Positions 1 to 58,026 of a DNA stretch of 64,000 nucleotides are shown piece by piece. Origin of the DNA: an uncultured bacterium (GTDB taxonomy: Bacteria > BMS3Abin14); the NCBI GenBank assembly GCA_965603295.1, contig CBFDCL010000001.1, forward strand, positions 506 to 64,505. Reading direction: 5' to 3'. Position 1 is the first letter of the stretch. Each line of letters starts with the position of its first letter. The notes under the pieces are model-generated. The model did not search any database, had not been told where the DNA came from, and saw only the letters and a list, made by a program, of their open reading frames with translations. Both the position numbers and the translations under genes were made by a program.

Positions 1-24
1 GCTTACGCTTGCTCAGGGCAGAGA

Positions 25-180
25 AAAAATCCAAGATCCAAGAACCAAAATCCAAGATCCGGGGAAACCACGTTGAACGTTTAATGTTTAACGTAGCCCA
101 ATCCCGCAACTCTCAAACTCTCAAACATCAAACCTCAAACTTCAAACTTTCAAACTTTCAAATTCTCAAACTTTCAAACC
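25..180. repeat. composite heptamer-repeat element, type 2: (TCCAAGA)n - AACGTTTAACG - (CTCAAAC)n
   Basis: Core 45-125 recurs at 1343-1410 with about 90% identity. Confidence 0.7.
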
Positions 181-191
181 GTTCCAGCATC

Positions 192-701
192 CTAATCATC
201 GATCAATCCTGGCAGGTCCACAAGGAGAATCGTGCCCGTGGCAAGGTCCACATCCTTAATTGTACCGCTTGCGAAGGGGACCATGAAAGGTTTCCCGTCC
301 TCTCGGTCCCCCGAAAGGACAGGGGGCCCCCCTGTTTCGAGGATCCTGTCAACTCTCCCGATCCTGATACCGTTGTGGTCCAGCAGGATCAGGCCGACAA
401 GATCGTGGAGAAAGTACTCCCCTTCCCGGAGGGGAAGCAGATCCCCCAGAGGCAGACAAACGGCTACCCCCCGAAGGGTTTCGGCTTTGTCCATATCATC
501 GATGCCGTCCAGTTTCAAAAGAGGGGCGCCCTTGTGCATCCTCACACCGAGGACGCGGACCGGGTCCCCGGAGAGCTGTCCAAGGAAGACGCGGTTAGCG
601 CCAGTGAGTGTGGACAGGTGGTCCGTACAAAGTCGCAGCACGACTTCACCTCGGCGCCCGTGGGGACGGAGGATCTCGGCAATCATATAGAGGTCATCCA
701 T
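192..701 (-). CDS. rimM: 16S rRNA processing protein RimM
   Basis: 169-aa ORF with the RimM N-terminal motif (IAEILRPHGRRGEVVL) and PRC barrel; lies immediately downstream of rpsP in the classic ffh-rpsP-rimM arrangement. Confidence 0.8.
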   Translation of the reverse strand: MDDLYMIAEILRPHGRRGEVVLRLCTDHLSTLTGANRVFLGQLSGDPVRVLGVRMHKGAPLLKLDGIDDMDKAETLRGVAVCLPLGDLLPLREGEYFLHDLVGLILLDHNGIRIGRVDRILETGGPPVLSGDREDGKPFMVPFASGTIKDVDLATGTILLVDLPGLIDD

Positions 702-737
702 GGAAGAAAAAGCCGCATCGATGGCGGCCAGGGAGAA

Positions 738-1016
738 TCAGCTGTTCGGTGTGCTGGGCTTCTCGTCGAACTTCTTCATAACGCCGATCCTGGAGAAAAG
801 GCTGCGGACCGTGTCGGAAGGGATCGCGCCCTGCCCAAGCCAGTACAGGGCCTTGTCTTCCTCAATGGCGATCTCGGCGGGGTCCTGCCTGGGGTCGTAC
901 GTCCCGATGTTCTCGATGAAGCGGCCATCCCGGGGTGAACGGATATCGGCCACAACCACCCTGTAAAAAGGTTGCTTCTTCTTTCCCATTCTTCTCAATC
1001 TGATGCGGACTGCCAA
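738..1016 (-). CDS. rpsP: 30S ribosomal protein S16
   Basis: 92 aa beginning (M)[21 protein letters not shown], the canonical S16 N-terminus; apparent TTG start with AGGAGG 7 nt upstream. Confidence 0.9.
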
Positions 1017-1132
1017 CGTTTCTCCTCCTGAAAAACAGGGCGCGGGACGCGGGGCGCCGGGCGCAGTTATATTTATTAATGGAAGCGTTATTTAGTACCG
1101 TTTCTTAAAGGGTTAGTCAAATGGTTTAATAA

Positions 1133-1469
1133 ATGCGATTTCAAATTTCATCCGCCTTCGCTAACGCCTCCCGACCAGCTACGGCGGAGGGGGATTCCAA
1201 ATTTCAAATTAAATCTCAGATCTCAGATCTCAAAATTTATCCAGGATTCAGGACCTATCCGCCTTCGTTAACGCCTCTTGACCAGCTTCCGACTTCATTT
1301 TCCAGGCAACGACGGACAAAACGGCGGACAGGAAATCCAAGATCCAGGGGAACCACGGTGAACGTTTAACGTAGCCCAACCCCACAACTTCAAACTTCAA
1401 ATCTCAAACCGCAAACAGTAATCCTGAGTTCTTAATCCTCAATCTTCAATTCTCAATTCTCAACTGTTT
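1133..1469. repeat. repeat-filled 450-bp ffh-rpsP spacer containing the type-2 composite element and an internally duplicated 35-bp block
   Basis: tccgccttcg(c/t)taacgcctc..gaccagct occurs at 1153-1187 and 1258-1292; (TCTCAGA)n, (TCAAAC)n and (TCAATTC)n tracts are present. Confidence 0.7.
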
Positions 1470-2798
1470 TTAGAACGGCATCCCCGGTATCCCCCTCGGG
1501 CCTTTCCCCTTTCCCATCATCTTCATCATCTTCCTTGCCTGCTCGAACTGCTTTAAAAGCCGGTTGACGTCGGTCACCGTAGTCCCCGACCCGGCTGAGA
1601 TGCGTTTCCTCCGGCTGCCGTTGAGAATTTTCGGGTTCTGGCGCTCAGCCGGGGTCATGCTGTCGATAATAGCGGTGATACGCACCAGCTGCCCATCGTC
1701 CACATCTCCCGGGATGGCGTTCTTCATCTTCCCGGGAAGGGGGAGCATGGAAAGGATGTCCGAAAGGGAACCCATTTCCCGGACCTTTGAGAGCTGGTCC
1801 CTGAAGTCCTCGAGATCGAAATCGCCTTTTCGATGCTTCCGGGCCAGTTCCCGGGCCTCTTTTTCCTCGAAGGTCTTCTCAGCCTTGTCGATCAGTGTCA
1901 GAACGTCGCCCATCCCGAGGATTCTCGAAGCGACACGCTCCGGGTGGAACGGCTCAAGGCCCTCAAGACCCTCCCCCACACCGGCGAACTTGACTGGAAC
2001 ACCCGTCACGCTGCGCATCGACAGGGCGGCTCCTCCCCGTGCGTCTCCATCGAGCTTCGTCAGGATAATGCCGGTAAGGGCCAGACGTCCATGGAACGAT
2101 TCCGCCACGTTCACCGCGTCCTGTCCGGTCATGGCGTCCGTGACGAGGAGGGTTTCGTGGGGCCCGACAGCGGCCGATAGGGTTGAGATTTCTCTCATCA
2201 GATCCTCGTCCACGTGAAGGCGCCCTGCCGTGTCGATGATTACGGTGTCACACCCGGCCCGGCCCGCTTCCAAGGAAGCGTTTTTATAGACCTCCAGGGA
2301 AGAGGACGCACCTTCGATGGAGAAGACGGGGACATCGATCTTCTTCCCGAGGATAACCAACTGCTCCACCGCTGCGGGACGGCTGAGATCCGCGGGAACG
2401 AGACAGACCCGGCTGCCCTGTTCCTTAAGGCTGAGGGCAAGTTTTGCGCAGGTCGTGGTTTTCCCCGAACCCTGCAGGCCCACCACGAGGATCCTGGTGG
2501 GCGGGATGGAGGCCCGCGCCAGGGATGAGCGGGTGCCCCCCAGGACACCTGTCAGCTCAGCATGGACGATCTTGATTACCTGCTGAGCCGGGGTCAGGCT
2601 TTCGAGAACCTCCGATCCGAGAGCACGTTCCCGGATGCTGGAAATGAAGTTTTTGACGACCTTGAAGTTGACATCGGCCTCCAATAACGCTAGTTTTATT
2701 TCCCGGAGGGTCGCGTCAATATCGGCTTCGGAGAGCTTCCCCCGAGCTTTGAGTTTTTTAAAAACGCTTTCCAGTTTTTCCGCAAGGTTCTGGAACAT
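1470..2798 (-). CDS. ffh: signal recognition particle protein Ffh
   Basis: N domain, SRP54 GTPase motifs (GLQGSGKTTT, DTAGR, TKLD) and Met-rich M domain; start placed at MFQNLAEKL (ATG 2796-2798) with upstream AGAGGA. Confidence 0.9.
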   Translation of the reverse strand: MFQNLAEKLESVFKKLKARGKLSEADIDATLREIKLALLEADVNFKVVKNFISSIRERALGSEVLESLTPAQQVIKIVHAELTGVLGGTRSSLARASIPPTRILVVGLQGSGKTTTCAKLALSLKEQGSRVCLVPADLSRPAAVEQLVILGKKIDVPVFSIEGASSSLEVYKNASLEAGRAGCDTVIIDTAGRLHVDEDLMREISTLSAAVGPHETLLVTDAMTGQDAVNVAESFHGRLALTGIILTKLDGDARGGAALSMRSVTGVPVKFAGVGEGLEGLEPFHPERVASRILGMGDVLTLIDKAEKTFEEKEARELARKHRKGDFDLEDFRDQLSKVREMGSLSDILSMLPLPGKMKNAIPGDVDDGQLVRITAIIDSMTPAERQNPKILNGSRRKRISAGSGTTVTDVNRLLKQFEQARKMMKMMGKGKGPRGIPGMPF

Positions 2799-3040
2799 TT
2801 TGTATCCTCTTTGCGGCACCGCCATTCAAAGGGTGCGCGATGTTTCCATTGACTGCCTGAAAAAACGGATCGGAGTCCGTCAAGAGAGGTTTCGAGGTTG
2901 TTAAAGTCGGGAAATTATGAAATGGTTAAGCGTTTGTCAAGGCTTACCGGCAGCTTGATCCCGTCCGGATGGGGCAGCCGGAAAGCCGAAGTGGTTGAAA
3001 ACCGGATTTTTTCGAAACGAGATAGGAGTGAGGTAGGCCG

Positions 3041-3623: not shown

Positions 3624-4613
3624 ATGATCGCTGCTGTCGCAAGTCTCACAGGTCTCGGTATCGTCGCCGCCTACGGTCTCAGCCTGGCGTCGAGGAAATT
3701 CCACGTTGATGTCGATCCCCGGCTTGAGGTTATCGAGGGGATCCTTCCCGGAGTGAACTGCGGTGCCTGCGGATATCCCGGATGCTCGGGATTTGCCGGC
3801 GGGCTCCTTGCGGGGGATGCGGTACCCACCGCCTGCGCTCCTGCCGATGAAGCCACCGTTGGAAAACTGGCGGAGTTCCTCGGCCTGGAGGTTGGGGATA
3901 TAGTCCGTATGGTCGCCGTGCGAAGATGCGGAGGCGGCCAGGGCAAAGCCGCTCTTCAGGCTATTTACGAAGGTGTGCACGATTGCCGGGCCGCTGTGCT
4001 AATTGGGGGAGGGAGCAAAACCTGCCTGTATTCCTGCGTCGGATACGGAACCTGCAAATCTGTTTGCCCCTTCGATGCCATCCAGATGAGTGAGGACAGC
4101 CTTTCCATCATTGATCCGGAAAAGTGTACAGGGTGCAACAAGTGTGTCGTTGCCTGTCCCAGGGACATCTTGACCCTCGAGTCCGCCGAGCACCAGGTTC
4201 ACGTGCGGTGCAGCTCCAATGATTCCGGGGCCCGGGTGAAGAAGGTCTGTCAGGTAGGATGCACCGGATGCGGGATCTGTGAGAAAGCCTGTCCGGTAAA
4301 TGCGATTGTCCTCGAGGACAGCCTCGCTTCCATCGATCCGGATACCTGTGTGGAGTGCGGAATCTGCTCCTCAAACTGCCCCACCGGTTCCATCTCCGAC
4401 GGCCTGCTGCCCCGTTCGCCCGTTTTCATCTCAGAGGCGTGCAACGGGTGTACGATCTGCGCCAAGGTCTGCCCCTACGATGCGATCTCGGGAGAAACAA
4501 AAGAACGGCACGTCGTGGATGAAAGCCGGTGTGTCGGTTGCGAACTCTGCGTCGAGAGGTGTCCGGTTCAGGCCATTAAATCCTGCGGAGGGACCGAGTT
4601 GGCTGTCGCTTAA
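3624..4613 (+). CDS. rnfB: Rnf-type electron transport subunit B with extra 4Fe-4S ferredoxin domains
   Basis: N-terminal membrane anchor plus CGACGYPGC motif typical of RnfB, followed by multiple CxxCxxCxxxCP ferredoxin motifs. Confidence 0.8.
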   Translation: MIAAVASLTGLGIVAAYGLSLASRKFHVDVDPRLEVIEGILPGVNCGACGYPGCSGFAGGLLAGDAVPTACAPADEATVGKLAEFLGLEVGDIVRMVAVRRCGGGQGKAALQAIYEGVHDCRAAVLIGGGSKTCLYSCVGYGTCKSVCPFDAIQMSEDSLSIIDPEKCTGCNKCVVACPRDILTLESAEHQVHVRCSSNDSGARVKKVCQVGCTGCGICEKACPVNAIVLEDSLASIDPDTCVECGICSSNCPTGSISDGLLPRSPVFISEACNGCTICAKVCPYDAISGETKERHVVDESRCVGCELCVERCPVQAIKSCGGTELAVA

Positions 4614-5458: not shown

Positions 5459-6730
5459 ATGGAGATCCTTCTCGTCGGACTCAGTCATAAAACGGCCCCT
5501 GTTGGGATCAGGGAGAAGATTTCCTTTTCCGAACGGAATTTAGATGAGGGTATCCGTGGACTCGTCGCCTGCCCGAGTGTCCATGAGGGGCTTATCGTTT
5601 CCACCTGCAACCGTGTTGAGATATATGCCGCCGCTACGAAAAAAAACGTCCAATCCGCCCGAGAGGAGATCGCGCGGTTTCTGGCTGATTTTCATGATGT
5701 GGTCCTGGATCAACTTGAACCCCACCTCTACGTTCTTACCGGCGAGGAATGCGTGAAACATATCTTCCGCGTGTCGTCGAGTCTGGATTCCATGATTGTC
5801 GGAGAACCGCAGATCCTCGGCCAAGTCAAGGAAGCGTTCGGTTGCGCGGCCAGTGCCCAGGCAACCGGGAATATCCTTAACCGTCTTCTCCATAAGGCTT
5901 TTTCGGTTGCGAAAAGGGTGCGAACGGAAACGAGAATCTCTACCTCGGCCGTGTCTATTTCCTTCGCGGCTGTGGAGTTGGCTCGGAAGATCTTCGGGGA
6001 GCTTGAGGGCCGGACGGTTCTGCTCATCGGCGCTGGAGAGATGGCGGAACTCGCTGCCCGACACCTCATGGTCGGTGGAGTGGCGCGGATAATCGTTGTA
6101 AACCGTACTTTCGAAAAGGGGGTTTCCCTTGCCTCCGAGTTCGAAGGGGAGGCGGCCCCGTTCGATGAGCTGGAACAGCAGATGGAAAGAGCGGACATTG
6201 TCCTGAGTTCCACCGGTTCACCAAGCGTTATCATCGACAGGAAGATGGTACAGAGGATCATCAAGAAAAGACGCAACAAACCGATGTTCTTTATCGATAT
6301 TGCGGTTCCGCGGGATATCGATTCCGGGGTCAACGGGATTGAAAACGTATACGCGTACGACATTGATGACCTCGAGGGTGTGGTCCAGGCCAACATCAAG
6401 GCCCGGTCCAAGGAGGCAGCCAAGGCGGAAGAACTTGTCACCGGCGAGGTCCGCCAGTTCACGGAATGGATGCGTTCGAGGGAGGCCTTTCCCACTATTG
6501 TTGCTCTGAGGGAGTGGGCCGAAGGGGTTCGGCGCAGTGAACTGGAAAAGACCTTGAAGAAGATGGAGGGTTTAAGTGAGCCCGACTCCAAGAGGATCGA
6601 AGCCATGACGGAGGCGATCCTGAACAAGATCCTTCACCGTCCCATCTCCCGGATGAAAAAAGCTGCCCATAAGGGCTACGAAGAGGATGTCGGTGATATG
6701 GTTAGGAAGATCTTTGACCTTGAGGAGTAA
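5459..6730 (+). CDS. hemA: glutamyl-tRNA reductase
   Basis: 423 aa; MEILLVGLSHKTAPV start, catalytic Cys region (STCNRVEIY) and NADPH-binding GAGEMAELAARHL. Confidence 0.9.
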   Translation: MEILLVGLSHKTAPVGIREKISFSERNLDEGIRGLVACPSVHEGLIVSTCNRVEIYAAATKKNVQSAREEIARFLADFHDVVLDQLEPHLYVLTGEECVKHIFRVSSSLDSMIVGEPQILGQVKEAFGCAASAQATGNILNRLLHKAFSVAKRVRTETRISTSAVSISFAAVELARKIFGELEGRTVLLIGAGEMAELAARHLMVGGVARIIVVNRTFEKGVSLASEFEGEAAPFDELEQQMERADIVLSSTGSPSVIIDRKMVQRIIKKRRNKPMFFIDIAVPRDIDSGVNGIENVYAYDIDDLEGVVQANIKARSKEAAKAEELVTGEVRQFTEWMRSREAFPTIVALREWAEGVRRSELEKTLKKMEGLSEPDSKRIEAMTEAILNKILHRPISRMKKAAHKGYEEDVGDMVRKIFDLEE

Positions 6731-6746
6731 TGCCGACGACATCAAT

Positions 6747-6827
6747 TTCAAAATTCAAATTTCATATTTCAAAAGGTGTACGCGAGTTTCATTTTTTATT
6801 TGAAATTTGAAATGTGAAATCTGAAAT
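6747..6827. repeat. imperfect 28-bp inverted repeat (TTTCAAA/TTTGAAA heptamer arms) in the hemA-hemC spacer
   Basis: Arm 1 is 6747-6774 and arm 2 is 6800-6827, 24/28 complementary; could form a long AU-rich hairpin between hemA stop and hemC RBS. Confidence 0.45.
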
Positions 6828-6846
6828 TATAATCAGGAGGAATTCA

Positions 6847-7782
6847 GTGAGTAAAAAACTTCGCATCGGTACACGCGGGAGCCAATTGGCCCTCTGGCAG
6901 GCCAACTGGGTCAGGGAGCAGCTGGAAAACTGCTATCCGGACCTTGAAATCGAGATCGAAACCATCAAGACAACGGGGGACAAAATCCTGGACGTTCCCT
7001 TGGCCAAAATCGGCGGCAAAGGACTTTTCGTTAAGGAGATCGAGGCCGCTCTTCTGGAGAACACCATCGATATCGCGGTTCACAGCATGAAGGACGTCCC
7101 CACTGAACTTCCCGTGGAACTGGGAATCGTGGTTGTGACGGAAAGGGAGGACCCGAGGGACGCTGTTATCGGAAACAAGGAAATCCCCATCCTGGACCTT
7201 CCGGCCGGATCGAAAATCGGGACGAGCAGCTTGCGCCGCCAGGCTCAACTCCTGGTTTCCAGACCGGATTTTGTGTTAGAGCCCCTTCGAGGGAACGTAA
7301 ATACACGGCTGCGAAAACTCCGGGAAGGGATGTTCGATGCCATTATCCTTGCCATGGCAGGCGTCAAACGCCTTGGATGGGAAAACAAGGTCACCGAGGT
7401 TCTCGATACCCACGTCATGCTCCCGGCCATAGGACAAGGGGCGCTGGGTATCGAAGCCCGGCTGGATGATGAGGCTACCATTGCCCGGATCTTGTTTCTG
7501 GATCATGAGGCTACCCGTTTCTGTGTGACTGCGGAACGATCCTTCCTCCACAGGCTCGAGGGTGGCTGCCAGGTGCCCGTCGCGGCACACGGGACGATGG
7601 AGGAAAACGGGATTGTACTGGAGGGGCTGGTCGCCAGGATCAATGGGGAGAAGGTAGTCAGGATGTCGGATCGCGCCTCGGCAGCCGACGCGGCAGTCCT
7701 GGGTACGAAACTCGCCGACAGGATCCTTGAGGCCGGCGGCAGGGAGATCCTCGAGGAGCTTTACTGCCGTGAGTTAACCTAA
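6847..7782 (+). CDS. hemC: porphobilinogen deaminase (hydroxymethylbilane synthase)
   Basis: GTG start 7 nt after AGGAGG; (V)SKKLRIGTRGSQLALWQA is the HemC N-terminus; the cofactor-binding Cys region is present. Confidence 0.9.
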   Translation: MSKKLRIGTRGSQLALWQANWVREQLENCYPDLEIEIETIKTTGDKILDVPLAKIGGKGLFVKEIEAALLENTIDIAVHSMKDVPTELPVELGIVVVTEREDPRDAVIGNKEIPILDLPAGSKIGTSSLRRQAQLLVSRPDFVLEPLRGNVNTRLRKLREGMFDAIILAMAGVKRLGWENKVTEVLDTHVMLPAIGQGALGIEARLDDEATIARILFLDHEATRFCVTAERSFLHRLEGGCQVPVAAHGTMEENGIVLEGLVARINGEKVVRMSDRASAADAAVLGTKLADRILEAGGREILEELYCRELT

Positions 7783-11012: not shown

Positions 11013-12409
11013 TCCCCCTCGATCCGAACCTTATGCAAGAGGTCATCGCCGCTCTTCTTTCCTCGGGAGGGGAGTTCGCGGACCTCTTTTTCCAGGATGT
11101 TACAGCCAGCCATCTGGAGGCCGAATCGGGAAGGGTGGAACGTGTTTCCACGGTGCGTGAGGCGGGAGCCGGACTCCGCCTTATCCGGGAGGGGGTCACG
11201 CATTTCGCCACGGCTGTGGACCTGACCCCGCGTCATTTACTTGACCTGGCTATGGACCTTGCTTCCGGGGCCGGAGCCACGGGAGACCGGCCCGGGATCA
11301 CCTTTCAACAGCAGGCCGGAGGATCCCTTCCTCCCGGGGAGGATCCCTCAGGGATATCCCTGGATGAGAAGAGCCGACTGGTGATGCGGGCCATCGAATC
11401 CCTCGAGAATTTTGACAGGAGACTCGTTCAGGTCAAGTCGGTTTACAGGGACTCCTCGGCCCTGGTCAGGATAGCCAATTCGGACGGTCTCCTGGGAGAG
11501 GATGTCAGAAGATATGGGGTCTTCCTGGTCCAGGGGGTGGCTTCGGACGGTGAACGCCTCCAGGTCGGTTATGAACCCGTGGGGGGTATCGGAGGTTATG
11601 GGGTATTCAGGCAGGTGAACCCAGAGGAGGTCGGGCTTACTGCCGCAAAACGTGCCCTGACGATGCTCGAGGCACCGGAGGCGCCTTCCGGAAAAATGAC
11701 CGTAATCCTTTCGTCCGAGGCCGGCGGAACGATGGTCCACGAAGCGGTGGGGCACGGTCTGGAGGCTGATCTTTCAGGTCAGGGGCTTTCGGTCTATACA
11801 GGAAAACTGGGGGAAAAAGTTGCCTCCTCCCTTATTACGGTTGTGGATGATCCAACCCTGGCCGGGAAACGGGGCTCATACAATATGGATGATGAGGGAA
11901 CCCCGGGATCGAAAACCGTCCTGGTGGAAAAAGGGGTCCTCGTGCGCTACATGAACGATCGGCTGAGTGCACTGCGTGACGGCAGTCCCCTGACGGGAAA
12001 CGGCCGCCGCCAGTCTTTCCGTTACTGGCCGATACCGAGGATGTCTAACACGATCATCGAACCGGGTGATCAGGATCCTGGAGAGATCCTGCGCAGTGTT
12101 GACCACGGGCTTTTCGTTCGGAAAATGGGGGGAGGTCAGGTGAACCCCGTGACAGGTGATTTTGTTTTCGAGGTCAGTGAGGGCAATTTGATCCGCGGGG
12201 GTGAGGTCGCAGAGGCGGTTCGCGGTGCTACCCTTGCCGGTAACGGCCCGGAAGTGCTAAAAAGTGTAGATATGCTTGGAAACGATCTTGGTTTCGGTAT
12301 CGGCACCTGTGGTAAGGAAGGACAGGGGGTGCCCGTAGGGGACGCGCAACCCACCCTGAGGATCCCGGACATGGTGGTGGGAGGCCGGGACGCTGGAGAG
12401 AACACCTGA
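11009..12409 (+). CDS. tldD: TldD/PmbA-family metalloprotease (TldD-like, HExxxH present)
   Basis: 466 aa with the TldD/PmbA fold and the HEAVGH motif. Confidence 0.7.
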   Translation: MIPLDPNLMQEVIAALLSSGGEFADLFFQDVTASHLEAESGRVERVSTVREAGAGLRLIREGVTHFATAVDLTPRHLLDLAMDLASGAGATGDRPGITFQQQAGGSLPPGEDPSGISLDEKSRLVMRAIESLENFDRRLVQVKSVYRDSSALVRIANSDGLLGEDVRRYGVFLVQGVASDGERLQVGYEPVGGIGGYGVFRQVNPEEVGLTAAKRALTMLEAPEAPSGKMTVILSSEAGGTMVHEAVGHGLEADLSGQGLSVYTGKLGEKVASSLITVVDDPTLAGKRGSYNMDDEGTPGSKTVLVEKGVLVRYMNDRLSALRDGSPLTGNGRRQSFRYWPIPRMSNTIIEPGDQDPGEILRSVDHGLFVRKMGGGQVNPVTGDFVFEVSEGNLIRGGEVAEAVRGATLAGNGPEVLKSVDMLGNDLGFGIGTCGKEGQGVPVGDAQPTLRIPDMVVGGRDAGENT

Positions 12410-16815: not shown

Positions 16816-16892
16816 TTAGGAATCCCCGGTGTCAGAGCAGAAGGTCGGTGATTGGTCATTGGTGACTGGCGATTGGAAAGGGAGGGGGTAAG

Positions 16893-17570: not shown

Positions 17571-17576
17571 AAATAG

Positions 17577-17607
17577 TGCACAGGTGCACCAGTGCACTAG
17601 TGCACTG
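17577..17607. repeat. cluster of four GTGCAC palindromes (AGTGCAC heptamer tract)
   Basis: agtgcacaggtgcaccagtgcactagtgcactg; similar clusters at 25474-25508, 29020-29050, 61770-61795 and 61880-61910. Confidence 0.6.
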
Positions 17608-20946: not shown

Positions 20947-21100
20947 GCCAAACGGTGCGTTTATCGTTTATTGTTTAACGTTTAACGTGGTTTTCCTGGA
21001 CCTTGTGGTTCTTGAATTGATTTCAATCTTGAATTTTAAATTTTTATCTTTTCCAACCACTGTTCACTAATCACTGATCACCAATCACTTGGCTCCATTT

Positions 21101-25581: not shown

Positions 25582-27225
25582 TTATTTCCCCAGTGCCTCA
25601 GCCAGGTCCTTGTCCACCTCCCCGATGGGGGCGATGCCGAAGTTGTCCACGAGCACCTGGAGAACGCCGGGCGTGATAAAAGCGGGCAGGGTCGGGCCCA
25701 GTTTGATGTTCCGGATCCCCAGGTGCAGCAGCGTCAGCAGGATGCAAACGGCCTTCTGCTCGTACCAGGACAGGATCATGGACAAGGGAAGGCTGTGAAG
25801 GTCCGTCTCGAAAGCGTCAGCCAGGGCCGATGCGATGCGGATGGCCGAGTAAGCGTCGTTGCATTGTCCAATATCCAGAAGTCGTGGGATGCCGCCGATG
25901 TCACCGAATTCCATCTTGTTAAACCGGTACTTTCCGCACGCCAGGGTAAGGATTACCGTGTCTTCGGGTGCCTTCTCGGCGAACTCGCTGTAGTAGTTGC
26001 GCCCGGGCTTGGCCCCGTCGCATCCTCCTATGAGGAAGAAGTGCCGGATGGCGCCCGATTTTACGGCGTCCACCACCGCCCCTGCAACGCCTAGAACCGC
26101 GTTGTGGCCGAACCCCACAGTGATGTTTTTTGCTTCCATGTCCTCAGCAAAGCCTTCCGATTCAAGGGCAGCCTCGATGACCGGGGAAAAATCGTCATTG
26201 CCAACGTGCCTGACCCCTGGCCAGGCCACGAGGCCCGTGGTAAAGATGCGGGCTTCGTAGCTTTTGCGGGGTTTCTGGATGCAGTTGGTGGTCATGAGGA
26301 TGGCTCCAGGGAACGCATCGAACTCCTTGTGCTGGTCCTGCCAGGCTCCGCCATAATTACCTACCAGGTGACTGTATTTCTTGAGTTCCGGGTAGCCGTG
26401 GCAGGGGAGCATCTCCCCGTGGGTATAGACGTTGATCCCCTTTCCCTTCGTCTGTTTCAGAAGGATTTCCAGATCTTTCAGGTCATGGCCGGAAACGAGG
26501 ATCGCCTTGCCCTTGACCGGCGTGATACGTACCTGGGTTGGTTCCGGGTGTCCGTAAACCCCGGTATTGGCCTCGTCGAGCAGCTCCATGACCCTCAGGT
26601 TGACTTCGCCCACTCTCATGGCCATGGCCACCAGGTCATCCGCCGAATGGTCCGTCGTGAGGTAATCGAGGGCTTCATGGAAAAAGGCGTTTATCCTCTG
26701 GTCAGTTTTCCCGAGAATGAGGGCGTGGTCGGCATAGGCTGCCATACCCTTGAGGCCGTATAAAATGAGTTTTTCGAGACCTGCTGCATCGTCCCCGACA
26801 GCCCGCTGCCGTATGGTGATCCCCACCGCACCGGCCTGGGCGAGGAGTCCGGCTCGGTCCTGGCCGGGGGAGAAGGCGGCTGCTTCGGAAATCTCCTCGG
26901 GTTTTTTCCCTGCCTGTCCGCAGGCGTCCTCGTAAAGTATTCTGGCGCGGTCACGGATTTGGATGCCCTGCCGGATCATGGCCTCGATCCGGTCAGGGTC
27001 GAAGTTCACGTTGGTGACGGTGGTAAACAGCGCTTCGATGACGAAGCGATCGATCGATTGATCCGCGGCCCCCAGTTGCCGTGCCCGATGGGCGTACTGG
27101 CTGATCCCCTGGACTGTGTGGATCAGGAGGTCCTGGAAGTCTGAAGTTTCGTCATCCTTGCCGCACACCCCGAACCTGTCGCATCCGGTCCCATGGGCGG
27201 TCTGCTCGCACTGGTAACAGAACAT
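25582..27225 (-). CDS. hcp: hybrid cluster protein (hydroxylamine reductase)
   Basis: Start [15 protein letters not shown] (N-terminal Cys cluster) with GGAGATAACC RBS; 547 aa; hybrid-cluster ligand regions. The ORF-track N-terminal extension was rejected. Confidence 0.9.
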
Positions 27226-27285
27226 GATGGTTATCTCCTTTTCTAAGATCAAAATAGTATCAGCATATCTTTTGCTGTCATGGAA

Positions 27286-27327
27286 AGTATATCGCGCCTT
27301 GTGCGGAGAAACCTTGACGGGGGTCAA
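27286..27327 (-). promoter_or_regulatory. hcp promoter: CRP/FNR-type palindrome TTGAC-N4-GTCAA centred 29.5 bp upstream of a TATACT -10
   Basis: Palindrome ttgacgggggtcaa at 27314-27327 (top strand), centre 27320.5. The TATACT -10 hexamer is agtata on the top strand at 27286-27291 (minus-strand sense), giving class-II spacing with the site at about -41.5. An AGGAGA RBS sits before the hcp ATG. Confidence 0.5.
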
Positions 27328-27628
27328 TAAACGGTGTTTGACGACCTGGCGAGGGGGCGACTGGGCGACGGGGAGGGAAGAGAGGGATCTAACCTCCAAT
27401 GCTTGCCAAGCCGTAGCTTTAGCGAAAGCTGGTCCAACGCCTGCCCACCGTAGCCTTGCGCGAAGGTGGGTCCAACGGGAGAGGCAGTTCAGAGTGCAAA
27501 GTTCAGAGTGCAGAGGGAACATTGTTGAGAATTGAGAATTGAGGGTTGGAAATCCAAGAATGCCGTTTGCTGTTTGTAGTTTGAAGTCGCGAATTTGAAA
27601 TTGTATGTCTGGAACCAGGAACTAGGTA

Positions 27629-31517: not shown

Positions 31518-31921
31518 GATCTCAGTGTGACCGCTTAGCCGGGATCGTGTCAACAGTAGATCCAAGAGGAATCAAAGCCCAATGCCCAAAGACCAAAGAA
31601 AACACAGGTGATTAGTAACTGGTGACCCCTCGACAGGCTTCCTCCTTCGCCTGAAGCTTAGGTGGACAGGCAGGGGATCCGGGGGGTCCAGGGAACAGAG
31701 TCCAGAGTCCAGAGAAAAGAAGGATCCAAGGTCCAACATCCAGGAAAACCACGTTAAACGTTAAACAATAAATGAAAAACGTTATTTCCCTCTGAGCACT
31801 GAACCCTGAACAGCTCTTCTGCCTCATTGAATCCTTGAAGACCGGGTCGATTAAGGATAACCTTTCCTGAACGGATTGGGCCGGTAGGGGGAAACCTGGT
31901 GTATTGACAGGGAGGCAAGAA

Positions 31922-32212: not shown

Positions 32213-32391
32213 TTTCATCACCTCGGTGCGAAAGGCGCAAAGCGCTGGGATGCCCAAAAGGGAAAATCCAGGGATGGGTTGGAAATCTTTGAGGAGACAG
32301 GAGCTTCGATCCCCCCCTCTCCGTGTCTCCGCGTCTCCGTGTCAAACGGTCTAGACAAGAATTAACCTGTCTGTCACATAGAGAACCCCAT

Positions 32392-33294
32392 ATGACCACC
32401 GATCCCCGATCCCATGTACCTCTTTCCGGAGGGGCACTCCTCATCTTAGTGTGCCTCATCTGGGGCGGGAACATGGTTTCCATCAAGTTCAGCAACCAGG
32501 GGGTTCCTCCCATGATTGCTGCCACCCTGAGATCCGTTTTGGCGGCGGTATGTCTGTGGGGTTTTGCGGCACTCAGGGGAAAACGGGTGCTCCTCCGGGG
32601 GGCGGACCTCAAACACGGGATCGTCATAGGGATCCTCTTCGGTCTGGATTTTTTCTTCCTTTATTGGGGAACCGCTTTCACGGTGGCATCCCGGGCCATC
32701 ATTTTCCTTTATACCCACTCCATCTGGGCCGCCATCGGAGCCCATTTCTTTCTCAAGGGAGACCGTCTCACTCCGATGAAAACCGGGGGCCTTCTCCTTG
32801 CATTCCTCGGTGTCGCATCGGTGTTCGGAGTCCGGTCAGAAGGACTCCCCCCGTCCTTCTGGATCGGGGATCTCATGGAGGTTGCCGCCGCCCTGTTCTG
32901 GGCCGCGACCACTCTATATATCAAGAGGGTTGCCAGCACGAGGCCCATTGACCATTACCAGACCCTTTTCGCCCAGCTGCTTTACTCTATTCCCGTTCTG
33001 GCCCTGGGTTGGCTGTTCCTGGACCTGGGCAAGCCGGTGACTCTTGACAGACTTGTCCTCGGGGCCCTGGCCTACCAGATTCTGCTTACGGCATTTTTCA
33101 GCTACGTTCTCTGGTTCTGGATGATTCACACCTACCCGGTGAGCCGTCTTGCCGCCTTTATCTTCCTCGCCCCCCTGTTCGGAGTTCTCCTGGGAGCGGT
33201 TGCTCAGGGGGATCCTATAACGATGCAGTTGATGATGGGGTTGGGGTGTGTCGGTGGAGGCATATATCTCGTAAATAAACCCCAGAAAAGTTAA
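32392..33294 (+). CDS. DMT-superfamily (EamA) transporter
   Basis: 10-TM EamA profile; start at MTTDPRS. Confidence 0.7.
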   Translation: MTTDPRSHVPLSGGALLILVCLIWGGNMVSIKFSNQGVPPMIAATLRSVLAAVCLWGFAALRGKRVLLRGADLKHGIVIGILFGLDFFFLYWGTAFTVASRAIIFLYTHSIWAAIGAHFFLKGDRLTPMKTGGLLLAFLGVASVFGVRSEGLPPSFWIGDLMEVAAALFWAATTLYIKRVASTRPIDHYQTLFAQLLYSIPVLALGWLFLDLGKPVTLDRLVLGALAYQILLTAFFSYVLWFWMIHTYPVSRLAAFIFLAPLFGVLLGAVAQGDPITMQLMMGLGCVGGGIYLVNKPQKS

Positions 33295-33449: not shown

Positions 33450-33944
33450 CTAACGGTTTTTCTCCGTGTCTCCGTGTCCCTGTGTCTTCGCGTCTGACGA
33501 TTTACCCCTTAGAGTCTCGATCTCCACGCGGATGACCACGACATTCTCGAGGTCTATCCCGGGAAAATCATATTTTCGGTCCGAATACTGGCCCATGAGG
33601 ATGGCAAGACCCTTTTTCTTGTCCTCGGGTCCGGTGAGGATGCGGGCTTTGCCTGTGCCGATGATGCTGCGGAATTCGGCCGTCCAGGAACAGGCTTTTT
33701 CGCCCCGGGCCAGCCTGTAATGGGAAACAACGGTGAAACAGATCTCGGGGTTTTTCCCCAGGACATCGATCTTCCGGCCTTCAGGAGCGGAGTGGAAGAA
33801 AAGGGCGTCGTCCCAGTAACCAAAGTTTAACGGAACGACGTAGGGCTTCCCGTCGTCCACCATGGAGAGATAACAGATCTCGCCCCGGCGGAGGATGTCG
33901 ATGAGTTCCTCTTGGGACTCAATTATTTTGTCTTTCCGGCGCAT
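33450..33944 (-). CDS. pyridoxamine 5'-phosphate oxidase-like FMN-binding protein
   Basis: PNPOx split-barrel blocks; the last ~12 codons are encoded by a CTCCGTG repeat tract. Confidence 0.6.
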   Translation of the reverse strand: MRRKDKIIESQEELIDILRRGEICYLSMVDDGKPYVVPLNFGYWDDALFFHSAPEGRKIDVLGKNPEICFTVVSHYRLARGEKACSWTAEFRSIIGTGKARILTGPEDKKKGLAILMGQYSDRKYDFPGIDLENVVVIRVEIETLRGKSSDAKTQGHGDTEKNR

Positions 33945-35870: not shown

Positions 35871-37343
35871 ATGGCCATGAACCGGGGTTTTACCGAAGAG
35901 CCTTCCGGAGATCTTCCGGACCACCTGGCACGAGTGAAAAGCTACGTACTCTCGGTTGGGGAATCCGCAGTTGACATTGCGGTCTCCATCCTGGCCCTCG
36001 TTATTGTGGGGCGTTTCTACGGGCCCGAGGGGATGGGCGTCTACACTTTCCTCATGTCCGTCTTTGTGATTGTTGTTTTCCTGTCGGAAGTCGGTATCGA
36101 CAAATGGATCGAAAAGGAACTGGCATCCGAGGGGCAGATTGATACTTCCCGAATGCTTGCCGAGGCAAAGGGCGCGGTTCTCCTCTCTGGACTGGCGGGC
36201 TGTCTGGCGATGTTGATTTTCGGAGCCTGGGCTTCGAAAAGCCCAACAGTGGCCGGGGGTACCTGGCCGGGGTTTGTTCTCCTTGCCCTTGCCGTGCCTC
36301 TGAACCTCAGGTCAGGGCTTCAGGTGTCGGTGCTCCACGGACAGGGAAAGCCCGGTGAGGCGGCTCGAGCGGGGTTCGTCAAACGCTCTGTTTTTCTGGC
36401 AAGCGTATTTACCCTTGCCTATCTTCGCTTCCGGCCCGAGCTGCTCATGGCTGGTTTTGTTCTGTCCGAGGCGGCATCCCTGGCTTCGGCCAGGAGGCGT
36501 GTCAGGATGCCTTCCATAGGCGCGGTTCTCAAGAGGATCCGTGGGGTCGGGGAAACGTTCCGGATGGGCTCACAGTATTATTTTACTCACGAGGCGCTCA
36601 AGGTCCTCTTCTTCGTGGATTTTTTTATCCTTGGGTTGTTCGTGTCTGCCACTCAAGAGGGGTCTTATGCCCAGGCCTCGGTTCTGGCCCGTTTCTTCCT
36701 GCTCATCCCTCTGGGGGCGGCTCCCCTTTATCGGGTCAAAGTGTACAGGGCTTCGGGTTCCGGGCAAGGAGAGATCTTTTCCGATTCCGCCCGGACCGCA
36801 GCCAGGCTTTTCACTCTTCACTCGATGGCGGGGTTGTTGTTCCTGCTCTACTTTCCCCATGTTCTCAGGGTCGTATTCAGGGTCCAAGGAGATACACCTG
36901 TTTTTTTCCAGGTTTTTTCCCTCCTTCTCCCGGGTTTGCTTTTATTTGCTTCCACTCTTGTTCTTGAACCGTTCTTCGGTGCCAGTGGGCGGGAAGAAGA
37001 CCTTAACCGTATCGCCCTGAAGGTTTTCATCCTCAACGCGTTCCTGAACTCCTACCTGATCCCTTACGCGGGGGTCCTCGGCGCCGCAACCGCTACGACC
37101 ATCTCACTCTCCGTGTATTTTGTCCTGTTTTCCAGGGAACTCGGGGAAATCGGTACCATTCCCCTTGGCTCTTACCTCCTGAGCGGGATCCTGGTGTATG
37201 TCAGCTACCATGTTTTATTTCCGGTTCAACCTTATCTTTTCATTGTCTTGCCCCTGGTTTTCGTCGTCCTGCCGGTCTTGTTCTGGGTGTTGGGTTTATT
37301 CGGTCAGGGGCAGGGAAAAAGACAATTGAGAATTGAGAGTTAA
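35871..37343 (+). CDS. polysaccharide biosynthesis protein / Wzx-like flippase (MOP superfamily)
   Basis: About 14 TM helices; the C-terminal 7 codons and stop are supplied by a GAGAATT repeat. Confidence 0.6.
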   Translation: MAMNRGFTEEPSGDLPDHLARVKSYVLSVGESAVDIAVSILALVIVGRFYGPEGMGVYTFLMSVFVIVVFLSEVGIDKWIEKELASEGQIDTSRMLAEAKGAVLLSGLAGCLAMLIFGAWASKSPTVAGGTWPGFVLLALAVPLNLRSGLQVSVLHGQGKPGEAARAGFVKRSVFLASVFTLAYLRFRPELLMAGFVLSEAASLASARRRVRMPSIGAVLKRIRGVGETFRMGSQYYFTHEALKVLFFVDFFILGLFVSATQEGSYAQASVLARFFLLIPLGAAPLYRVKVYRASGSGQGEIFSDSARTAARLFTLHSMAGLLFLLYFPHVLRVVFRVQGDTPVFFQVFSLLLPGLLLFASTLVLEPFFGASGREEDLNRIALKVFILNAFLNSYLIPYAGVLGAATATTISLSVYFVLFSRELGEIGTIPLGSYLLSGILVYVSYHVLFPVQPYLFIVLPLVFVVLPVLFWVLGLFGQGQGKRQLRIES

Positions 37344-37768
37344 GAATTTCAGCCGGTGACTGGTGATTGGTGACTGGGGAACGGTTTGATGTTTGAAGTT
37401 GGATAACCGCGCTGTCATCGCGAGCTGGCATCTGCGCGAAGCGATCCCATAGTGAAGGTTGAAAATCGAGCCTTGGACAGGCTCAGGCCGGGGGAGTTGA
37501 AAATTGAGGATGAACGACAGTGGATCTTTGGGGTCAGAGACCAGCTTTTCGGAAGCCCCAATCCGGATGTCTAAAGGCCAGGGAAAACGGTGATTAGTGA
37601 TTGGTGAATGGAAGATGATGATCAGTTTTACGTTTGAAGTTCAATCTTGGATTCTGAATCTATTCCTTCTTCAACTTTCCACCTTTTTTCTTCCTGTTCT
37701 GTTCACCATTCCCAGTGTTTAACTTCAAACCCGAACATCAACTTCCAAACTCTCAAACTCTCAAACTC

Positions 37769-45469: not shown

Positions 45470-45584
45470 AGAAGCCAGGAGCCAGGAGCCAGTGGCCAGT
45501 GGCCAGTGGGTTCTGAAATGGTGTAATCATAGCCGGAATTTTTGAACTTCTCCTGACTCTTGAATTCTGACTCCTGGCTCCTGC
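45470..45584. repeat. inverted arrays of (GCCAGGA)/(CCAGTGG) versus (CTCCTGG/CTCCTGA) heptamers in the tmk-mogA spacer
   Basis: gccaggagccaggagccagtggccagtggccagtgg at 45470-45510; ctcctgactcttgaattctgactcctggctcctg at 45550-45584; the word recurs at 34921-34940. Confidence 0.6.
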
Positions 45585-51062: not shown

Positions 51063-52086
51063 CAGGTTCCCGGATTCCCTTCCGGGGTGTTCCCGTTTCC
51101 CCCGAATATTCTGCCTTCTGATCACGGTTATCTTTCTGGTTTCCGGGTGTTCCGGTTCGCGAAAGCCCGTTCGTGAGACCCGCTTCCTGATGGGGACCCT
51201 CGTCGATGTGATCGCCTACGGGGACCAGGAAACGGCCGCCGAGGCGGTGGGCCGGGCCTTCGAAAGGATGGCGGAGGTGGAAGAGGCATCTCATAGTAAG
51301 GGCTTGGGTTCCCTTCTTGGGGCCATCAGGGACGGAAAGGGTGCCCTTCTTACCGGTGATGCCGCTCTCGTCATGGAAACGGCCCTGTCCGTCGCTGTGG
51401 CCAGTTCGGGGGCTTTTGATCCCACTCTGGGGGAACTGGTGGAACTGTGGGGGATCGCCACCGGTCATCCGGAAGTGCCCGATGACGAGAAGATCAAAGA
51501 GGCCCTTTCCCGTTCCGGGTACCAAAGGATCCCGGAGACAGGGTGCTGTCCCGATGGGATGAAGGTGTGGCTGGACCTGGGCGGTGTGGCCAAAGGGTAC
51601 GCGGTGGATGAAGCGGTCAAAGTGCTGAAGGAGGCGGGGGTCCCCTCGGGGATCGTTAACGCGGGCGGGGATCTGAGGTCCTTCGGTCAAAAGCCGGGGA
51701 AAATTCCCTGGAAGATCGGGATCCAGAATCCCGATGACCCTCAGGATCTGGCGGGGGTCCTGGATGTTAACGAGGTCTCCGTCGCGACCTCGGGGGATTA
51801 TCAGCGATACTTTGAGGTGAGCGGTGTCCGGTATCACCATATCCTCGATTCGACCACCGGACATCCCGCACGGTCAGGGGTCCGCAGTGTGACAGTCCTC
51901 ACGGATGACTGCGCTCTTGCCGATGCCCTGGCCACAGCCGCTTTCGTGATGGGTCCCGAAAGGGGCCTGGGTCTGCTGGAGGCCTGGGAAGATGTGGAGG
52001 GGATCATCATTTCCCAGGACGGTACCTATCACCTGACGTTGGGCATAGGAACGAAGATCCCGTTTGAGAAGCGAATTGAGGATTGA
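51052..52086 (+). CDS. apbE: FAD:protein FMN transferase ApbE (lipoprotein)
   Basis: Lipobox (LVSGCSG); ApbE motifs (DLGGVAKGYAVD, GGD); the stop codon lies inside a GAGGATTGAG repeat. Confidence 0.8.
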   Translation: MMIDRFPDSLPGCSRFPRIFCLLITVIFLVSGCSGSRKPVRETRFLMGTLVDVIAYGDQETAAEAVGRAFERMAEVEEASHSKGLGSLLGAIRDGKGALLTGDAALVMETALSVAVASSGAFDPTLGELVELWGIATGHPEVPDDEKIKEALSRSGYQRIPETGCCPDGMKVWLDLGGVAKGYAVDEAVKVLKEAGVPSGIVNAGGDLRSFGQKPGKIPWKIGIQNPDDPQDLAGVLDVNEVSVATSGDYQRYFEVSGVRYHHILDSTTGHPARSGVRSVTVLTDDCALADALATAAFVMGPERGLGLLEAWEDVEGIIISQDGTYHLTLGIGTKIPFEKRIED

Positions 52087-52324
52087 GAATTGAGAGTTGA
52101 GGATTGAGAAAAAAGTTTGAAAGTTTGAGAGTTTGAGGTTTGAAGTTGTGAATTCAGGAGACAGGAGCCAGAATCCAGAAGGCAGCATTTCTTTGGCCTT
52201 TGGGCATTGGGCTTTGGGCTGTTCTTCCAATCACCAATCACTGGTCACAAATCACCGAAATTTTCTTGGATCTTGGATCTGTTTTGAAATTTGGAATTTG
52301 AAATTGCCTTTTGAGATTTGAGAT

Positions 52325-54123: not shown

Positions 54124-54200
54124 AACTTCAAACCTAAAACATCCAACCAATCACCAATCACGGTTTTTATTCTCAATTCTCAATCCTCAATTCTCAATTT
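54124..54200. repeat. composite heptamer element in reverse-complement orientation (F'-H'-E')
   Basis: caacttcaaacctaaaac / ccaatcaccaatcacgg / ttctcaattctcaatcctcaattctcaa; overlaps the pgeF stop. Confidence 0.7.
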
Positions 54201-56565: not shown

Positions 56566-56732
56566 CTTCCCACCCTAAGTGACCCGTACGGGAAAATCAA
56601 GGGGGCTTGTCATTTTCACCGTGGCTTGAAGTGGCGGGAATCCCGCCACTTCAAGCCCTCAAACTTCAAACAGAGTTCTCCACGTTTAACGTTGAACGTT
56701 GAACGTGATTCCAACTTCAAACTCTCAAACTC

Positions 56733-57650: not shown

Positions 57651-58026
57651 TGCCCTCTCCTGGTTTTGCGAACGGGTCACCCCGGCATCTGGCGGAGAAA
57701 ATGAAAAAATACAGCAAGTGCAGAAGGTTTGCAACGAGGCGACAGTCGGAGGGGCTTGTAAGCAGTGCACGGTGTCTGGTATCTAGAAGAGAAGTTGGTT
57801 GGAGTTTGAGAGTTTGAGAGTTTGAAAGTTGCAGGTCAGTGCAGAGTGTAAAGTGCATCCCCCTTCGCCAAGGCTACGGGGGACAGGGGGTGCAGAGGGG
57901 AAAGTCCGACGCGGAGACACGATGACGCGGGGACGCGGAGGAAGACCGAGATTTGAAGTTTGATGTTTGAAGTTGGAAACACGTTCAACGTTCAACGTGT
58001 TCTTCTTGAATCTTGAATCTTGAATC

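Follow-up and report, generated by a model that had tools for sequence, protein, structure and literature searches.

The ffh-rpsP-rimM-trmD region

A stretch of 64,000 nucleotides (nt) from an uncultured bacterium of the BMS3Abin14 lineage (contig CBFDCL010000001.1; hereafter the window) opens in a gene cluster around the gene for ribosomal protein S16, where two sets of heptanucleotide repeats, copy A and copy B, lie between the genes. ffh (1470..2798, minus strand) encodes an SRP54 homolog of 442 amino acids as called in the collection, with its stop codon at 1470-1472; rpsP (738..1016, minus strand) encodes S16 and starts with TTG at 1016; and rimM (192..701, minus strand) is an open reading frame (ORF) whose called gene matches Pfam RimM. 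On same-organism contigs from ENA metagenome assemblies, trmD and then rplS and rnhB lie left of window position 1, with the trmD start just left of it (locus L001). Copy A occupies the rimM-trmD junction and copy B the ffh-rpsP spacer, which measures 453 nt. Independent metagenome contigs containing the region number at least 14 and come from two sets of assemblies, those of ENA and of the Joint Genome Institute (JGI). The data comprise the 64-kb window and a few short loci, and the gene map is a codon-score map of the window corrected with the gene calls of the collection, in which start codons adjoining arrays have uncertain positions. Copies A and B belong, as paralogs, to a genome-wide family of noncoding mosaics.

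The "core" common to the two copies is a string of heptanucleotide arrays, not one unique sequence, and on the sense (minus) strand it follows the pattern (AATTGAG)n-(GTTTGAR)n-linker-(ACGTTNA)n-GGTTYCCC-(GGATCTT)n. Copy A reads, on the minus strand, (GTTTGAR/GTTTGARA)~9 - GTTGCGGGATTGGGCT - (ACGTTNA)3ACGT - GGTTTCCCC - (GGATYTT)5, and copy B reads (AATTGAG)~5 - TGTTTGCG - (GTTTGAR)3 - GTTGTGGGGTTGGGCT - (ACGTTNA)2CCGT - GGTTCCCC - (GGATYTT)2. Five words cover most units of the family and give the blocks their letters: E, AATTGAG; H, GTGATTG; F, GTTTGAA; N, ACGTTNA; and D, GGATCTT. The blocks of the two copies are as follows.

26..60, minus strand: copy A D block, (GGATCTT)-type array of ~5 units (Tandem Repeats Finder [TRF] period 7, 4.6 copies; tract list; word map)
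61..69, minus strand: copy A linker GGTTTCCCC between the N and D blocks (junction pattern in A, B and a third site, 31731-31753)
70..94, minus strand: copy A N block, (ACGTTNA)3 plus ACGT, holding the palindrome AACGTT
95..110, minus strand: copy A linker GTTGCGGGATTGGGCT, two degenerate TTGSGGS units
111..179, minus strand: copy A F block, GTTTGAR and GTTTGARA, periods 7 and 8, ~9 units
1333..1346, minus strand: copy B D block, two units
1347..1354, minus strand: copy B linker GGTTCCCC
1355..1372, minus strand: copy B N block, one unit fewer than in copy A
1373..1388, minus strand: copy B linker GTTGTGGGGTTGGGCT
1389..1416, minus strand: copy B F block, (GTTTGAR)n
1429..1467, minus strand: copy B E block, (AATTGAG)n, beginning a few nucleotides past the ffh stop codon

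Similarity of copies A and B

A repeat search paired 48-87 with 1333-1372 (40 nt, 90% identity) and 77-111 with 1355-1389 (35 nt, 86%), at offsets of 1285 and 1278, and the difference of 7 nt between these offsets equals one repeat unit. Local alignment of the sense strands joins 48-140 with 1333-1416 at 76 identical positions out of 84 (90%), with a single 7-nt indel of one unit. The alignment score of 101 lies ~34 standard deviations above that of shuffled sequences (16.5 ± 2.5), and the junction strings GGGRTTGGGCTACGTTAAAC and CGTGGTTYCCCYGGATCTTGGAT are present in both copies where 0.00-0.01 matches are expected by chance. A preliminary description, made from the sequence alone, had reported two related copies of ~90% identity at 45-125 and 1343-1410, each accompanied by (CTCAAAC)n tracts. 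Both copies are real, down to their matching linkers, and so are the tracts (108-179, period 7/8, 9.4 copies; 1386-1409, 3.4 copies; there is also (TTCTCAA)5 at 1429-1463). The reported positions mark the same repeat, with the second copy misplaced by ~10 nt from 1333-1416. The suggestion that the copies form a discrete second type of element has to be abandoned: they are part of one ordered family of 17 mosaics, and copy B carries (AATTGAG)n as well.

Period-7 arrays across the window

Over the whole window TRF returned 110 rows, nearly all of period 7. In the lag analysis, high-match positions numbered 165 at lag 7 and 30 at lag 8, with none at lags 3-6 or 9-12. By one fixed criterion the window contains 57 period-7 tracts, compared with 0.35 in local shuffles, which is a density of 0.89 per kb; 77 unrelated bacterial loci around ffh, 637 kb in all, have 0.020 per kb. 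About 80% of the tract bases (1,505/1,879) are intergenic, although intergenic DNA makes up 13% of the window; tracts amount to 19% of all intergenic bases and occur in 23 of the 35 spacers of at least 60 nt. At least 10 different words are found among the arrays. The copy units are 7-8 nt long and contiguous, and thus do not resemble CRISPR arrays, which have 23-50-nt repeats and unique spacers. The genes beside the mosaics are unrelated housekeeping genes, with no link to any gene class.

On both flanks, tracts lie next to stop and start codons, the median distance being ~10 nt. For four genes, three in the window and one in L094, a locus outside it, the stop codon lies inside the first units of an (AATTGAG)n array, so that the array itself supplies the stop, or may have overwritten the 3' end of the gene:

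ApbE gene, at 52086 (52073-52102)
laccase-like gene, at 54187 (54168-54201)
gene ending at 37343 (37321-37345)
L094 gene (1470-1494)

The arrays also bear on annotation, as they yield long spurious antisense ORFs, blur start-codon calls and sometimes provide real stop codons. An ORF of 309 amino acids at 9-938 (plus strand), antisense to rimM and rpsP, passes through mosaic A and stays open because the antisense strand of the arrays has no stop codons; false gene calls are likely to arise from it.

Order and orientation of the blocks

When blocks were grouped into same-strand runs and each run was read on its own strand, 17 runs (mosaics) in the window followed the order E-H-F-N-D, with 45 concordant and 7 discordant block pairs; a tandem EHF-EHF duplication accounts for 3 of the 7. 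In 20,000 within-run permutations the observed concordance was never reached. The copy A run is F-N-D and the copy B run is E-F-N-D. Further F-N-D or N-D copies are located as follows.

57951-58035, plus strand
56658-56722, minus strand
20957-21010
31721-31790, minus strand

The copies at 20957-21010 and 31721-31790 have 34 identical bases in common. In pairwise alignments of mosaics, 45 of 47 positions are identical between mosaics C and D and 41 of 43 between mosaics E and F. The same order is found outside the window: L094, from JGI sample Ga0114922, reads E-F-N-D and begins in the stop codon of the gene upstream; over 107 bases it shares 84% identity with copy B. A metagenome scan for the N-D junction found 25 loci, of which five are relevant (four from Ga0114922, and L098). 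As a separate observation, the convergent spacer at 37324-37638 (plus strand) holds two full E-H-F mosaics in tandem.

The orientation of the mosaics follows that of the genes. In co-directional spacers 8 of 9 runs are on the sense strand, and in convergent spacers all four have their 5' end nearest the stop codon of the gene sharing their sense strand, two of them marginally; together 12 of 13 are in sense orientation (p = 0.003). Plus- and minus-oriented runs are about equally common, therefore the strand bias tracks transcription and not replication. The sense-strand words are rich in G and T and poor in C (10% C in copy A, 14% in copy B). Of 38 co-directional tracts, 18 have every reading frame of the sense strand closed by a stop codon, versus 3 for the antisense strand. 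Counted by tract, the G>C skew barely reaches significance (25 vs. 12, p = 0.047), and the strand argument does not rest on it.

Variation among strains and turnover among relatives

The strain comparison was based on 14 contigs that are 99.6-99.9% identical to the window. Within the window three indels were observed, and all consist of whole units within arrays:

8 nt, copy A F block: one 8-nt unit missing in L003
7 nt, an N block: L116
14 nt, an E block: L114

Of the strain indels observed, one alone does not correspond to a repeat unit: a 22-nt deletion, with one substitution, in L002 (~11020-11045, relative to L001, L003 and L005), just upstream of the trmD start and outside the window and the arrays. 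Hypermutability of the arrays was considered and rejected, since the density of single-nucleotide polymorphisms (SNPs) in tracts is the same as in coding sequence; indels alone mark the arrays.

Among 185,579 species genomes, the best Ffh matches are three metagenome-assembled genomes (MAGs; L007-L009) at 71-73% identity, followed by the next at 58%. The three MAGs are syntenic with the window from hemA to rpsP at ~70% nucleotide identity. The lengths of the two intergenic regions that hold copies A and B compare as follows.

ffh-rpsP spacer: window, 453 nt; L007-L009, ~215-370 nt; outgroups, ~34-100 nt; E. coli K-12, 248 bp
rimM-trmD junction: window species, 225-247 nt; L007-L009, ~5-12 nt; outgroups, ~15-35 nt; E. 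coli K-12, 30 bp

No array is present at the rimM-trmD junction of the three MAGs, and the expansion of this junction is specific to the window species. The ffh-rpsP spacers of the MAGs do contain arrays, made of other words (TTCCAAT, ATTCCAG and GTTTCTA). Thus, the tendency to form arrays is common to the lineage, while words and positions turn over.

Two further observations were made in other genomes. In L009, inverted (AGTTGAA)n / (TTCAACT)n arrays lie at 3841-3944 in the divergent rnfA-ffh spacer, whose ortholog in the window (2826-3040) has no array. In three Thermoanaerobaculia MAGs (L023, L026 and L041; ~5900-7400), members of an unrelated phylum, heptamer arrays of AGTCGAG, GTTCCAG and CCTAACA are located downstream of ffh in the same gene cluster.

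The remainder of the ffh-rpsP spacer and the signals around the mosaics

Besides copy B, the ffh-rpsP spacer contains a duplicated block (1150-1180 and 1257-1287, 31 nt, 90% identical). Each block is followed by ACGGCGGA, directly at 1181-1188 in one case and after a 33-nt insert at 1321-1328 in the other. These and the other features around the mosaics are listed here.

1257..1328, minus strand: hairpin module 1, the second 31-nt block, the 33-nt insert and ACGGCGGA
1195..1241, minus strand: short arrays (AATTTGA)n and (GAGATCT)3 between the hairpin modules
1150..1188, minus strand: hairpin module 2, the 31-nt block and ACGGCGGA, with a TCCGCC...GGCGGA stem (module confined to the ffh-rpsP spacer among all loci compared)
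1092..1120, minus strand: promoter-like TTGACT-17-TACTAA, ending ~75 nt before the rpsP start (fixed-pattern search)
1036..1066, minus strand: (GCGCCCN)4, a GC-rich heptamer tract in the presumed rpsP leader (TRF; lag analysis)
711..729, minus strand: terminator-like hairpin GGCCGCCATCGATGCGGCT followed by TTTTCTT in the 36-nt rpsP-rimM gap, ending at the rimM start codon (outside the repeat family)

The pattern TTGAC-N18-TA-N3-A has exactly one match in the ffh-rpsP spacer of the window organism and of each of L007, L008 and L009, 50-113 nt before the rpsP start. It matches in <1% of shuffles per genome, as a pattern chosen post hoc. Automatic alignment of the regions upstream of rpsP did not line these sites up because their distance to the start codon varies. 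In the window the site lies downstream of copy B and of both hairpin modules, and from the sequence ffh and rpsP are probably not one operon here; this placement would therefore put copy B in the 3' flank of ffh, outside an operon. At the other end of the cluster, rplS has a strong promoter-like TTGCCT-16-TATAAT (10/12) in the trmD-rplS spacer (L001 11847-11874, plus strand), which suggests that rplS may also be transcribed alone. No promoter-like site was detected before trmD. TrmD is essential, and because its gene has no detectable promoter of its own, copy A would have to be transcribed through; judged from these patterns, it could hardly be a strong terminator.

Inside copies A and B, neither terminator-like nor sigma-70 promoter-like sites (-35 and -10 boxes 16-18 nt apart) were found, and the nearest terminator-like site is the one in the rpsP-rimM gap. 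That hairpin (711-729) does not fold better than shuffles; it could attenuate or mask rimM expression. Likewise, no fold better than shuffles was obtained for the whole 453-nt spacer (z = -0.36) or for the mosaics together with the hairpin modules (z between +0.45 and -1.82, a range that includes a value of -1.6), and the three differences between the 31-nt blocks would disrupt predicted base pairs, with no compensating change. A hairpin that pairs the two linkers (GGGCU / GGUUU, which needs G-U pairs) could form in copies A, B, F and G but not in C, D, E, H and I. A check by eye found no clean compensatory change in it, and it was dropped as a candidate.

These results modify the picture of the spacer given in the preliminary description. 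Its length of ~450 bp was correctly stated, and so was the contribution of the copies to the unusual length, as both junctions are longer than in L007-L009 and the outgroups. The internal duplication is real and 90% identical, at 31 nt rather than 35. The ffh-rpsP junction is not generally tight, given the 248 bp in E. coli K-12 and relatives that are already long without the composite. Long spacers in relatives free of these repeats had been named as what would speak against the description: the relatives' spacers are indeed shorter than 453 nt, but at ~215-370 nt they are long without this composite, which in part does so. The assumption that ffh and rpsP share one operon probably fails in view of the promoter-like site upstream of rpsP in all four related genomes, and the proposed internal terminators or promoters were not recovered within either mosaic.

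Origin and effect of the mosaics

The explanation that we favor, with a probability of roughly 0.55, is that the mosaics are slippage-prone, dispersed heptanucleotide arrays that are copied as blocks into spacers and carried along as spacer RNA, with a passive or quantitative effect. The arrays would grow and shrink in whole units by slipped-strand mispairing, and a 7-nt step is what Mrazek et al. (2007, as summarized in PMC4679880 and PMC4692102) proposed for slippage by bacterial DNA polymerases. Recombination or templated copying would then have spread a mosaic, as one block, to many spacers, and the mosaic would be carried in the transcript of the flanking gene as C-poor, stop-codon-rich and weakly structured spacer RNA, whose orientation would be filtered by selection on the transcript. 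Rho loading sites are C-rich, G-poor, unstructured and untranslated stretches of RNA. Antisense mosaic RNA would have these properties and the sense RNA is C-poor, which may be one concrete reason for such a filter.

At the locus described here, copy B and the two tandem hairpin modules would fill the 3' flank of ffh upstream of the conserved promoter-like site of rpsP, and copy A would have expanded an otherwise very short rimM-trmD junction through which read-through would be needed for trmD expression. The local effect is most likely passive or quantitative, by spacing, by uncoupling of rimM and trmD translation or by length-dependent tuning. The mosaics are probably not discrete terminator, promoter or processing signals. 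There is no sign of a switch specific to the ribosomal operon, and the impression of a regulator dedicated to it is thereby removed.

Several points weigh against this explanation. The copying of mosaics between spacers is a step that we infer. The words and their order were defined on the same window on which they were tested, so that the permutation test is partly post hoc and L094 is its sole independent confirmation, and the orientation tests comprise 9 to 13 cases placed on a codon-score gene map. SNPs are no denser in the tracts than in coding sequence. A TTG/CAA (TTGR) core is present in 35 of the 57 tract consensus units, where 17 ± 3 are expected. Four of the five words have their unit-to-unit variation clustered at one or two positions (chi-square test, p between 0.017 and 8e-10): position 7 in F, position 6 in N, positions 1-2 in E and position 7 in H, with no pattern in D (p = 0.43). 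Finally, the strand bias and the fixed order would also fit a recognition function.

Such a function is the substance of a tentative alternative, for which we see a real but minor chance. Here the arrays would be binding platforms, in which a protein with a footprint of ~7 nt reads a 5-6-nt core, often TTGR, in the sense transcript or the DNA and thereby exerts genome-wide control at gene boundaries, including rimM-trmD and ffh-rpsP; a cold-shock-domain protein, S1, a CsrA-like protein or a nucleoid protein would be candidates. The conservation of each word outside its one or two free positions, the excess of TTG/CAA, the sense bias with its fixed block order and the retention of the GTTTGA core in both the 7- and the 8-nt variants of the F word are all in its favor. 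So is the recurrence of the same or nearly the same words in distant phyla, namely TCTCCGTG and CTCCTGA in the Geobacter metallireducens consensus and a TTTTGAA-like word in Nostoc. Comparable proposals have been made for TAACTGA (PMC4679880), for the Nostoc repeats (10.1101/2022.06.06.494920) and for the Geobacter sites (PMC2700814). However, the at least 10 words would call for many factors or one very tolerant factor, neither words nor positions are conserved in syntenic relatives, no gene class is associated with the arrays, and unit counts differ between strains. The binding protein is hypothetical, and slippage that amplifies a few variant units can also give uneven variation. An even more speculative form of this idea, to which we attach somewhat less credence, is that the mosaics would be a new class of element of bacterial untranslated regions, with ordered recognition sites every 7 nt for one or more single-strand-binding proteins on the sense transcript, which would mark gene boundaries and set the relative expression of rimM and trmD.

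It is doubtful that the mosaics are nonautonomous mobile elements, of the type of miniature inverted-repeat transposable elements (MITEs) or of repetitive extragenic palindromes (REPs) and bacterial interspersed mosaic elements (BIMEs), moved by a transposase or by an enzyme like the REP-associated tyrosine transposases (RAYTs). A dispersed family with subfamilies up to 95-98% identical over 43-48 nt, located at extragenic, transcribed positions, might well arise in this way; E blocks overlap four gene stop codons, as expected of 3'-end insertions, and the assembly from recurring modules recalls BIMEs. But no terminal inverted repeats (6-nt seed) and no REP-like palindrome were found, the sole inverted repeats being the internal AACGTT and a weak complementarity between the N and F blocks of copy A. 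There is no recognizable target-site duplication, and the ends are ragged and the arrays variable in length. No transposase was seen adjoining the mosaics, although no search was aimed at one.

On the reading given in the preliminary description, the copies would be inserts that regulate the ribosomal-protein operon specifically, whether as terminators within it, as sites of RNA processing or as promoters; we regard this as unlikely. Both copies do fall between genes of the ffh / rpsP-rimM-trmD-rplS cluster, expansion of the rimM-trmD junction is peculiar to the window species, and A/U-rich single-stranded repeats could conceivably be cut by an endonuclease. Against it, the same mosaics stand beside unrelated genes throughout the window, they contain no terminator- or promoter-like match and no stable structure, the promoter-like sites of rpsP and rplS are outside them, and copy A would have to permit read-through to trmD. 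That the similarity reflects low-complexity chance or an assembly artifact can practically be dismissed: simple repeats do inflate alignment scores, but the nonrepetitive linkers match, the score stands ~34 standard deviations above shuffles, and the recovery of the region at 99.6-99.9% identity in 14 independent ENA and JGI contigs refutes an artifact.

Relation to known repeats

Intergenic heptanucleotide repeats have been known in cyanobacteria since ~1990 and were later found in Burkholderia, Xanthomonas, Geobacter and Beggiatoaceae. The arrays of the window are of this known kind; what is new is their density, the fixed order of many words and the sense bias, which are undescribed in the literature compared, as far as its surveys are summarized there. 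The uncultured, deep-branching bacterium is an extreme and regular case, with about one array per kb, a small vocabulary sharing TTGR, a fixed order, a preference for the sense strand and one or two free positions per unit. Such regularities are hard to obtain from slippage alone, and they turn the question of junk or function in heptamer repeats into concrete tests. Rfam gave no match at the gathering score in the 64 kb and none at E ≤ 1 in 1-1600, and a literature search for the words themselves returned nothing bacterial.

The closest comparison is with the long simple sequence repeats (LSSR), whose units are 5-11 nt long and most commonly heptanucleotides (Mrazek et al. 2007, as summarized in PMC4679880 and PMC4692102). 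Like the arrays of the window, these are described there as tandem head-to-tail heptamers beyond chance expectation, mostly intergenic, variable in unit number and of proposed slippage origin. The window shares with LSSR the tandem units, the mainly noncoding location of units whose length is not divisible by 3, and the unit-number polymorphism among strains; it differs in its 0.89 tracts per kb and 19% of intergenic bases, and in its many words of fixed order and orientation, which are not part of that survey as summarized.

The short tandemly repeated repetitive sequences (STRR) and other contiguous heptamers of the cyanobacteria Calothrix and Nostoc, such as GGGGAYT and TTTTGAA, are likewise intergenic arrays of several unit types per genome, lying near start codons or promoters, sometimes within operons (pecE-pecF) and in some cases as inverted pairs (PMC4692102; 10.1101/2022.06.06.494920). 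A TTTTGAA-like word is found in the window at 6744-6828. Dimers of the STRR units CCCCAGT, TTGGTCA and CAACAGT are absent from the window, save one TTGGTCA dimer with one mismatch at 16852, and the host is not cyanobacterial, as no cyanobacterium is among the 80 best Ffh loci. An ordered mosaic of several words is not described for cyanobacteria in the compared portions of that literature (PMC4692102; 10.1101/2022.06.06.494920).

In marine Beggiatoaceae, TAACTGA repeats form short intergenic heptamer arrays that often abut start codons, as do those described here (MacGregor 2015, PMC4679880). They comprise 2-6 units, also occur inside ribosomal-protein operons and show no pattern of gene function, and a post-transcriptional role has been suggested (PMC4679880). 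These repeats use one word, with related heptamers rarely repeated, compared with at least 10 words in the window, where no TAACTGA dimer was found.

Tandem hepta- and octanucleotides of G. metallireducens are similar in their tandem units and in their intergenic and intra-operon positions (Aklujkar et al. 2009, PMC2700814). They have 3-5 units, for example in proB-proA, are species-specific and absent from G. sulfurreducens, and are mostly opposite-strand pairs read as sites for integration host factor (IHF) or HU (PMC2700814). Copies A and B do not match the consensus sequences GTTGCTYN, TCTCCGTS, MTYCTGA and GGACCGG; they are single, direct arrays of other words, with no inverted partner. 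Elsewhere in the window, octamer arrays of TCTCCGTG with 3-4 units, at 32317-32343 and 33459-33495 (plus strand), flank the gene 32323-33294 in the same orientation, and another occurs in L094 at ~1620-1680; they match the "class 2 global regulator site" TCTCCGTS of G. metallireducens (PMC2700814). The class 3 consensus of that species, MTYCTGA (PMC2700814), fits the CTCCTGA units found at 45550-45583.

The defining units of these named families of LSSR type (STRR, TAACTGA and those of G. metallireducens) are thus absent from copies A and B. In E. coli, REP and BIME sequences are extragenic and transcribed, are found at the 3' ends of genes or between cistrons, and occur in hundreds of copies as mosaics of modules built from palindromic hairpin units. 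The mosaics of the window resemble them in their extragenic position, with presumable co-transcription, and in their recurring modules. They differ in being direct repeats without stable structure, in which AACGTT alone is palindromic and no stem-loop palindrome of ~20-40 nt is found. At hmw1A of Haemophilus influenzae, the number of 5' 7-nt units reportedly varies by slippage and tunes expression stepwise. This is a single contingency locus in a pathogen, unlike a genome-wide ordered family.

Other arrays and inverted repeats

Additional arrays and inverted repeats were observed near the mosaics or elsewhere in the window and its flank. The hemA-hemC spacer (6744-6828, plus strand) contains inverted (AATTTCA)n and (TTTGAAA)n arrays with 30-nt arms that are 87% complementary, and the long hairpin has z = -2.3; arrays can therefore form structure when paired. 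In the rplS-rnhB spacer (L001 12289-12405, plus strand), directly 3' of rplS, inverted (CAGAATC)n ... (CTGACTC)n arrays form a hairpin of -36.6 kcal/mol (z = -3.0), which may be the operon end. Directly downstream of mosaic D (minus strand, purC-rseC), the two 17-bp arms of a perfect inverted repeat, GGCTTGAAGTGGCGGGA / TCCCGCCACTTCAAGCC, occupy 56623-56657 and enclose a 1-nt loop. At 17576-17607 (plus strand) there is a period-8 array of the palindromic GTGCAC, GTGCACAG GTGCACCA GTGCACTA GTGCACTG, and a period-38 tandem repeat of 2.2 copies lies at 27395-27477, in the 5' part of the minus-strand gene 25582-27522.

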